64,000 nucleotides of DNA, taken from Eledone cirrhosa (taxonomy: Eukaryota). Position numbers and translations under genes: made by a program. Positions 36,507 through 37,597 of the stretch are shown here, in pieces. How positions within the stretch are numbered: the stretch's first letter is position 1; every line of letters begins with the position of its first letter. A model generated the notes under the pieces. It did no database searches. It saw nothing but the letters and a program-made list of their open reading frames with translations, and was not told the DNA's origin. The stretch is taken from the NCBI GenBank assembly GCA_964016885.1, contig OZ024752.1:24552001-24616000 (forward strand). Reading direction: 5' to 3'.

Positions 36507-36933
36507 CTATCTATCTAAGGCGGGTAAAATTCCCGAGATCCATGGACGAGTTCTCTCCAGCGGTCTCTGTCCCTCATTATCGCTGCCATATCCTGCATCT
36601 CCAACAGACCATGTCTGTCCTTAGGGCATCAACATATGTTAACCTTGGTCTTCCTCTTCTAGTGTGTCCATGTAGGGGCTCCCAAAGGAGCACTGAGTGC
36701 AATGTCAACTCTGGATGTCGGTGAGCATGTCCAGCCAACCTCAGTCTCCTCTGTGTCACTTTTGAGCTGACATATATATATAAACATATATATATATAAA
36801 CATATCATATATATAAACATATATATATATAAACATATCATATATATAAACATATATATATATAAACATATCATATATATAAACATATATATATAAACAT
36901 ATCATATATATAAACATATATATATATAAACAT

Positions 36934-36968
<35 letters not shown>

Positions 36969-36988
36969 GATATATATATATATATATA

Positions 36989-37054
<66 letters not shown>

Positions 37055-37174
37055 TATATATATATAAACATATATATATATATATATATCAGATATATAT
37101 ATATATATATCAGATATATATATATATATATATATATGATATATATATATATACGATATATAAATATATATATA

Positions 37175-37248
<74 letters not shown>

Positions 37249-37597
37249 TATATATATATATAATTATATATATATATCAGATATATATATATATATATAT
37301 CAGATATATATATATCAGATATATATATATATATATCAGATATATATATATATCAGATATATATATAAGATATATATATATATATATATATATATCAGAT
37401 ATATATATATATCTGTGTCACTTTTGAGCTGACTTTTGGGATGCTCCCATACAGCTCTGAGTTTTTCATCCTCAGTGTATACTGATTAATGTTCAGAGCC
37501 ATCCTCAGTATTCTCGTGTAGCACCCATCCACCATCTGAGTGAGTCTCTTGGTCAGTGTCCAAGTCTCAGACCCATAGAGCAGCACAGACTCCACTA
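36507..37597 (-). mobile_element. 3' fragment of the RTE-clade LINE, split by a 640-bp TA-rich insert
   Basis: 36507-36771 and 37412-37597 match ~50051-50480 in reverse complement; 22 bp are duplicated at the break. Confidence 0.9.

Follow-up and report, generated by a model that had tools for sequence, protein, structure and literature searches.

A 640-bp tract of TA-variant sequence lies inside an RTE-type LINE copy, flanked by an exact 22-bp direct repeat, and this duplication-flanked tract is real in the assembly. We give a probability of roughly 50% to its formation in a single TPRT event, in which cDNA synthesis would have made two excursions from the LINE RNA to a TA-variant template and one return, to a point 22 nt back. 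Duplication-flanked TA insertion recurs within 64 kb, in a second host that we take to be a Neptune-like PLE. All positions refer to the window, the whole 64-kb stretch of DNA that was analyzed.

A LINE copy split by TA-variant sequence

The window holds two LINE copies, one full-length and one split into pieces A and B. Their features, and those of the simple sequence around the split copy, are as follows.

35193..36506: TA-variant array on the left flank, with the regional polarity; CTG 17, CT 14, GTT 0
36499..36771, minus strand: LINE piece B, the LINE 3' end with its (TAGA)n tail, equal to 50215-50488 of the long copy
36750..36771, plus strand: left copy of the 22-bp duplication, at the 5' end of piece B
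36772..37411, plus strand: TA-variant tract of 640 bp (the inner tract), polarity reversed relative to the regional arrays
37412..37433, plus strand: right copy of the 22-bp duplication, at the 3' end of piece A; ends ACAGA, then TA
37412..37597, minus strand: LINE piece A, equal to 50051-50236 of the long copy, 5'-truncated
37598..37645, plus strand: short TA patch at the LINE 5' junction, reversed in polarity like the inner tract
37646..38759: TA-variant array on the right flank, with the regional polarity; CTG 15, CT 12, GTT 7
46828..50476, plus strand: full-length RTE-type LINE with APE remnant and RT, the uninterrupted reference; duplication site at 50215-50236

The RT domain of the full-length LINE matches RVT_1 (E=2e-33), and its APE gives a weak Exo_endo_phos match (E=0.004-0.03) below the Pfam cut-off; the ORF is interrupted by a frameshift and stops. 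The 3' UTR is extremely short and consists of simple repeats, the stop codon (50470-50472) being followed by ACAGATAGA and a TA repeat. From this architecture we take the host LINE to be an RTE. An APE and an RT with a very short repeat 3' UTR are likewise described for RTEs in PMC2887409. At 46511-46521, 300 bp from the LINE 5' end, a bare copy of the tail repeat, CTATCTATCTG, stands within a TA array and is possibly an aborted priming event. The leader at the 5' end itself (46828-46905) is short and structured-looking, and may resemble the HDV-like ribozymes found in LINE 5' UTRs.

Exact copies of the 22-mer stand at 36750-36771 and 37412-37433 on the plus strand, and a third lies on the reverse strand at 50215-50236; searching the window at up to 3 mismatches returned these 3 matches, against 0 in 100 shuffles. 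The original prediction of a 22-bp repeat around simple sequence thus holds in the assembly. Its description of the corresponding site in the long LINE copy as single and free of a TA seed also stands (the site has a GC content of 0.50), whereas the coordinates it gave, 50216-50237, were off by one. Among the 75 TA-rich tracts in the window, only the 640-bp tract has a complex direct repeat abutting both of its edges.

Piece A differs from the long copy by 2 mismatches and piece B by 2 mismatches and one 1-bp gap, and together they make up one 5'-truncated, minus-strand copy of the RTE-type LINE that is ~99% identical to the full-length one. At 12 of 13 family-variable sites the two pieces carry the alleles of the long copy, including minority alleles at 50102 (14%, piece A) and 50397 (24%, piece B), which indicates that both derive from one (minority) subfamily. 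A common subfamily is compatible both with one RNA as the source of the two pieces and with a copy that was split later. Two independent LINE insertions that overlap by chance are unlikely, with 1 of 41 [CT]AGA sites falling inside the overlap.

The inner tract is simple sequence (82% TA/AT steps, 35 alternating runs) in which AAC occurs 11 times, CAG 9 times, CG 4 times and AG once. It has two sub-domains, AAC blocks followed by CG/CAG units, with five tandem blocks of ~33 bp at its left end, and its variant units, at least 4 in kind and variably spaced, are not tandem copies of one fixed unit. Microhomology at its junctions is 1-3 nt only; at the left junction 2 nt (AC, a dinucleotide at 5.7% of positions) may be in register with the repeat. 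The patch at the 5' junction of the LINE comprises two units, one main unit and one single-base unit.

Polar vocabulary of the TA arrays

Outside the inner tract, CTG, CT or GTT account for 340 of 512 plus-strand interruptions of the TA arrays, counted after reversed patches had been turned round. Their spacing is stereotyped (GTT-13-CTG in 17/26), and the vocabulary is strand-polar, with 329 units reading one way and 40 the opposite way (n=369). One polarity prevails in 15 of the 16 arrays (3285-60961), independently of the orientation of neighboring elements, and the arrays at 58636-60639 consist almost entirely of GTT units. Only the inner tract is reversed, in all 21 of its main units. It also differs from the flanking arrays in its share of CT (1/21 vs 26/65, p=0.002, or p=0.03 with the 33-bp block collapsed) and is the only array of the window with the CG unit. 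No donor for it was found in the window, its best match to any other array being at null level, and we therefore rejected the idea that it is an inverted copy of any array in the window, flanking or not. The reversed polarity, low CT share, private CG unit and missing window donor together indicate that the inner tract was put or made where it stands.

The longest unit runs common to two arrays, 3 exact or 4 with tolerance, equal Markov nulls over 120 pairs, the first of these nulls being fitted to the same data. This leaves recent copying of the arrays from each other unsupported, and fast slippage could equally wipe out unit order. In inverted duplicates (~26500-26930; 59660-59829 vs 60093-60260) the variant units flip with mirrored spacing, which shows that they are real sequence. 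Pure TA runs of 40-100 bp number 58 in the window. Within the TA array at 26480-26930 the variant units form a near-perfect mirror centered at ~26700, the product of fold-back synthesis inside the array.

A general rule by which polarity follows element orientation was rejected, because the two 3' flanks of the LINE are opposite in the element sense; addition at a chromosome end was rejected as well, since the elements of the window lie in both orientations. Regional polarity is explained more simply by one ancestral array divided by insertions than by RTs cycling on short templates (below). The polar vocabulary is a more interesting lead than the duplication-flanked tract.

A second duplication-flanked insertion

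Other duplication-flanked TA tracts, for which a search had been proposed, proved not to be absent: when the two sides of TA-rich gaps were compared for shared repeats, a second one emerged in the window, with a 15-bp duplication. In 361 left/right flank pairs scanned, such a repeat occurred in these two cases and in one trivial overlap.

45446..45510, minus strand: relative of the second host, ~87% identical, with the site uninterrupted
58625..58639, plus strand: left 15-bp copy, exact, in the 3' region of a Neptune-like PLE
58640..60097: TA-variant insert of 1,458 bp with fold-back, 15-mer stutters and a foreign piece
60098..60112, plus strand: right 15-bp copy; the element runs on to 60166

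The host remnant shows, by eye, a CX4CxxC linker; its label as a Neptune-like PLE (a group covered in PMC8557442) is our assumption. Within the insert lie a 60-bp foreign piece (59278-59338), four more copies of the 15-mer (60082, 59810, 59826 and 59842; 0-2 mismatches) and a fold-back (~59660-59856) that copies sequence on the right of the insert. The fold-back is on the cDNA strand of the host, with the stutter 15-mers adjacent. Such an opposite-strand copy of nearby DNA, a snap-back feature, is part of this insert, whereas the LINE tract has no donor in the window. Repeated re-copying of the 15-mer argues for re-priming rather than a staggered cut. In both cases the insert reads AAC (AAAC) on the cDNA strand of its host, in the second case outside the fold-back. 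The second site has an ATAT seed, and the polarity of its insert is the regional default.

Nature of the 22-bp repeat

TSDs of RTEs are mostly 6-12 or 7-15 bp long (PMC2887409, PMC6007223), a range that the 22-bp duplication exceeds; the comparison is with other RTEs. The T stretch found ~10 nt before the first TSD base in RTEs is absent from the junction sequences in both orientations, and neither end of the duplication bears the signature of an L1-type TTTT/AA nick. In the LINE sense, the right junction (ACAGA followed by TATATA) resembles the normal 3' junction of the LINE, (T/C)AGATAGA followed by TATATA. This likeness was noticed post hoc; ACAGA occupies 0.5-0.7% of positions in the 3' region, [CT]AGA 1.5-1.7% and AGA 4.5%.

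These observations bear on what the original prediction made of the tract. That it is new at its site is supported, given the seedless site, a polarity opposite to that of both neighboring arrays and the missing window donor. We doubt, by contrast, that the 22 bp are the TSD of a staggered cut, in view of their length for an RTE, the missing T stretch, the several extra copies of the 15-mer in the other insert, the tail-like right junction and the reversed 5' patch. Nothing ties the tract to a PLE RT in particular, its host being an RTE-type LINE, and we found no evidence that TA tracts are mobile in themselves.

Copies of the LINE in public sequencing runs

The last 597 bp of the long LINE (49880-50476) were compared with 4 of 24 listed runs. 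The family reaches great abundance in run X15, with 11,492 contig pieces on these 597 bp; this run possibly comes from the sample used for the assembly. The junctions of the split LINE are known from the assembly; 50215 and 50236 do not appear among the 20 of 576 loose ends listed, which is uninformative. The joints listed include backward ones with short foreign letters (50151>50045, 50321>50245 and 50468>50433) and one via TATATA (50473>50056), and the rows listed include tandem LINE copies joined through TATATA and LINE 5' ends passing into TA at 50179 and 50363. The backward joints may instead be nested insertions or subfamily duplications.

In run X22 (RAD, another sample), 124 reads pass at 50316 from the LINE into a TA/TG repeat and 121 reads are loose on the opposite side. 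The position is a CATG site that neither loose end restores, and the 121-read side comes from another sequence; it is possibly another internal insertion in another LINE copy. Run X1, labelled as a different organism, contains the LINE at ~99% identity over 387 bp and 0.69 of its sampled words, possibly reflecting a close relative, horizontal transfer or a mixed sample. Searches of collections with little animal DNA were uninformative, with 0 matches of the 22-mer in metagenome contigs, 0 of the GTT-13-CTG motif in viral and in metagenome contigs, and 0 of the LINE DNA to phages.

Origin of the inner tract

The single TPRT event that we favor would have been primed in the left TA array and would have copied ~265 nt of the LINE 3' end, after which the cDNA end would have switched to a template of TA-variant sequence, either the RNA of a read-through TA tail or single-stranded DNA of an array close by, for 640 nt of synthesis with slippage. 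Re-priming on the LINE RNA at the internal, tail-like ACAGA would then have copied 22 nt a second time, and after 186 nt the cDNA may have left again for the same kind of template before being joined to the right array. Re-entry on the element RNA a few bases back would make the apparent TSD a re-priming overlap and not an endonuclease product. Of this scheme, we observe the anatomy, the reversal of polarity, the re-entry site that resembles the tail, the common subfamily of both pieces and the second case; the enzyme and the sequence of steps are inferred.

This course of events is favored because the inner tract is the sole reversed array and a reversed patch sits at the 5' junction of the same copy, because re-entry falls on a tail-like ACAGA and both pieces come from one subfamily, and because the second case has stutters and a fold-back, with AAC on the cDNA strand in both inserts. 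The length of 22 bp beyond a typical RTE TSD, the absent T stretch, the backward joints of the family and the reported template switching of R2 and L1 point the same way. Against it stand the lack of a donor, the deviating CT share and private CG unit, and the junction microhomology of just 1-3 nt. It also needs two RT classes (RTE-type and PLE) where a host repair polymerase would be simpler; an ATAT seed is present in the second case, whose insert has the regional polarity in any event; the 5' patch is only two units long; and other 5' junctions do not all conform, the one at 3285 having the opposite reading on its cDNA strand. Two cases are insufficient for an orientation rule, as chance agreement is 0.25.

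Host repair of a staggered break in the inserted LINE, by copying of TA-variant DNA and with the 22 bp as a true target duplication, is the main rival, though somewhat unlikely in our judgment. It would cover both cases with one host enzyme, it is also compatible with the fold-back and stutter of the second case, and the LINE sits between two long, fragile TA arrays; telomeric repeats have been reported at breaks with duplications (6/130 rodent and 4/25 primate loci; PMC2246262), as has MMEJ repair of breaks at TA repeats (PMC13645644). However, the flanking arrays offer no matching donor, and break repair leaves the tail-like ACAGA, the reversed 5' patch and the like cDNA-strand reading of both inserts unpredicted. 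It is improbable that a LINE protein nicked the site and inserted only the TA-variant read-through tail of some transcript between real TSDs. The 3' flank of the full-length copy would indeed yield cDNA of the observed reading, RTEs are reported to add SSRs between TSDs (PMC2887409), and the family is plentiful (the 11,492 contig pieces of X15), but the duplication is over the typical TSD length with no T stretch, the site is GC-normal whereas family 3' flanks start with TA, and the tract is unlike the flank of the long copy.

A mis-join, a gap fill or base-caller noise in TA repeats is very improbable. Noise could resemble a memoryless, polar vocabulary, and the junctions are missing from the 20 of 576 loose ends listed; yet noise tied to read direction is not expected to flip units in mirror fashion in inverted duplicates, the 58 pure runs of 40-100 bp and dispersed copies that are 99-100% identical speak against it, and a gap fill would not double 22 unique bases, quite apart from the second case. 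We give hardly any credence to a TA-flanked element that made a 22-bp TSD on insertion and afterwards disappeared through recombination of its TA ends: the two sub-domains of the tract would suit it, but there is no element remnant, the host is young (~1% from the long copy), and local PLEs target TA (PMC8557442) and not coding LINE DNA.

The ordinary template for the excursion that we favor would be a long array, or a transcript, that was already there. A bolder version, which we regard as unlikely, would have RTs (RTE-type and/or TA-targeting PLEs) act as sloppy telomerases that cycle on short TA-variant RNA templates and write kb-long polar arrays de novo. Such cycling might occur at any stage of insertion, and the new arrays would be targeted by the next TA-specific insertions, a self-feeding loop that could have built the 64-kb pile-up. 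It keeps some weight because no donor was found and unit order is at the Markov null. A vocabulary and spacing held in common without a common order fit short-template cycling and, equally, slippage turnover. Overall, we probably have before us a variant form of RT template switching or of break repair, both known processes, and not a mobile microsatellite.

Relation to known systems

R2 makes template jumps, snaps back onto nearby DNA and uses extra templates (PMC11371274), and L1 forms complex insertions through template-switching reverse transcription (PMC11702581); PMC2912911 is a further source for such behavior. Here, too, cDNA would move to another template or to nearby DNA, with inverted copies and several templates per insertion. 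Unlike in R2 and L1, the excursion is internal, 0.6-1.5 kb long and TA-variant, and it leads back into the element that was left, with an overlap of 15-22 bp. Interstitial telomeric sequences (PMC2246262) share the polar repeat, the seedless site, the occasional duplication and the occasional position in a repeat element, but in our case there is no fixed unit, no known template RNA and only 1-2 nt of register, and the host may have been in mid-synthesis.

LINE RTs are known to make simple repeats, as in RTE-generated microsatellites (PMC2887409) and in the telomerase-like tail slippage of the eel LINE UnaL2 (PMC1636434). In those systems RT slippage on the LINE tail makes simple repeats, and the host LINE here has a (TAGA)n tail; the repeats so made are short and terminal (3'), however, whereas the tract is internal, 640 bp long and built of units other than that of the tail. 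Among PLEs, Hydra, Naiad and Neptune target (TA)n (PMC8557442), and Hydra-like PLEs, some arranged in inverted or tandem fashion, crowd the TA arrays of the window. The accessible part of PMC8557442 describes such PLEs as users of TA targets and not as makers, and a polar variant vocabulary does not figure in it. Once purified, a Poseidon PLE nicks AT-rich DNA; it extends both strands, and synthesis begins at internal points of its RNA (PMC11167929). The accessible part of bioRxiv 10.64898/2026.07.22.740005 adds nothing further on TA arrays. In the literature covered (titles and the starts of abstracts, with few subscription papers and no supplements), we found neither internal TA excursions with overlap nor polar TA-variant arrays.

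Should long TA arrays be written by RT excursions, retroelements that target TA would produce the sites on which they land, and the birth of long (TA)n arrays and of nested element clusters would have a direct mechanism; short duplications around simple repeats in LINEs would then not be readable as TSDs. The polar vocabulary makes the mechanism testable, since each tract records the strand of its writing. If ordinary break repair was at work, the tract is a minor example of templated insertion.

Neighboring elements

Retroelements are piled up in the TA arrays of the window; they include the two LINE copies, several Hydra-like PLEs and the Neptune-like remnant. Three PLE families carry apparent Hydra-clade motifs (RWR/RWK, DKT/NKT, CxCX5C, YIG/YVG) and have putative (TA)n targets; the marks reported for the clade are an RWK-type motif, DKT, a CxCX5C linker, a C-terminal GIY-YIG and (TA)n targets (PMC8557442). 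One Hydra-like family (9162-20080, 27904-34282, 39049-45413) has a ~4-kb 3' extension rich in TA/CA repeats and ends in a hairpin that precedes (TA)n; some of its copies are large and inverted or in tandem, with arms up to 99.8-100% identical. Three related pieces of 190-210 bp (24917-25103, 34377-34587, 60640-60835) lie between TA runs and end in long hairpins. Their words CTGAAGA...GAAAC may resemble a hammerhead core; Rfam gave 0 matches at the gathering threshold. At 52446-54104, between two TA arrays, a 485-bp unit is present in 3.4 tandem copies of 99% identity.
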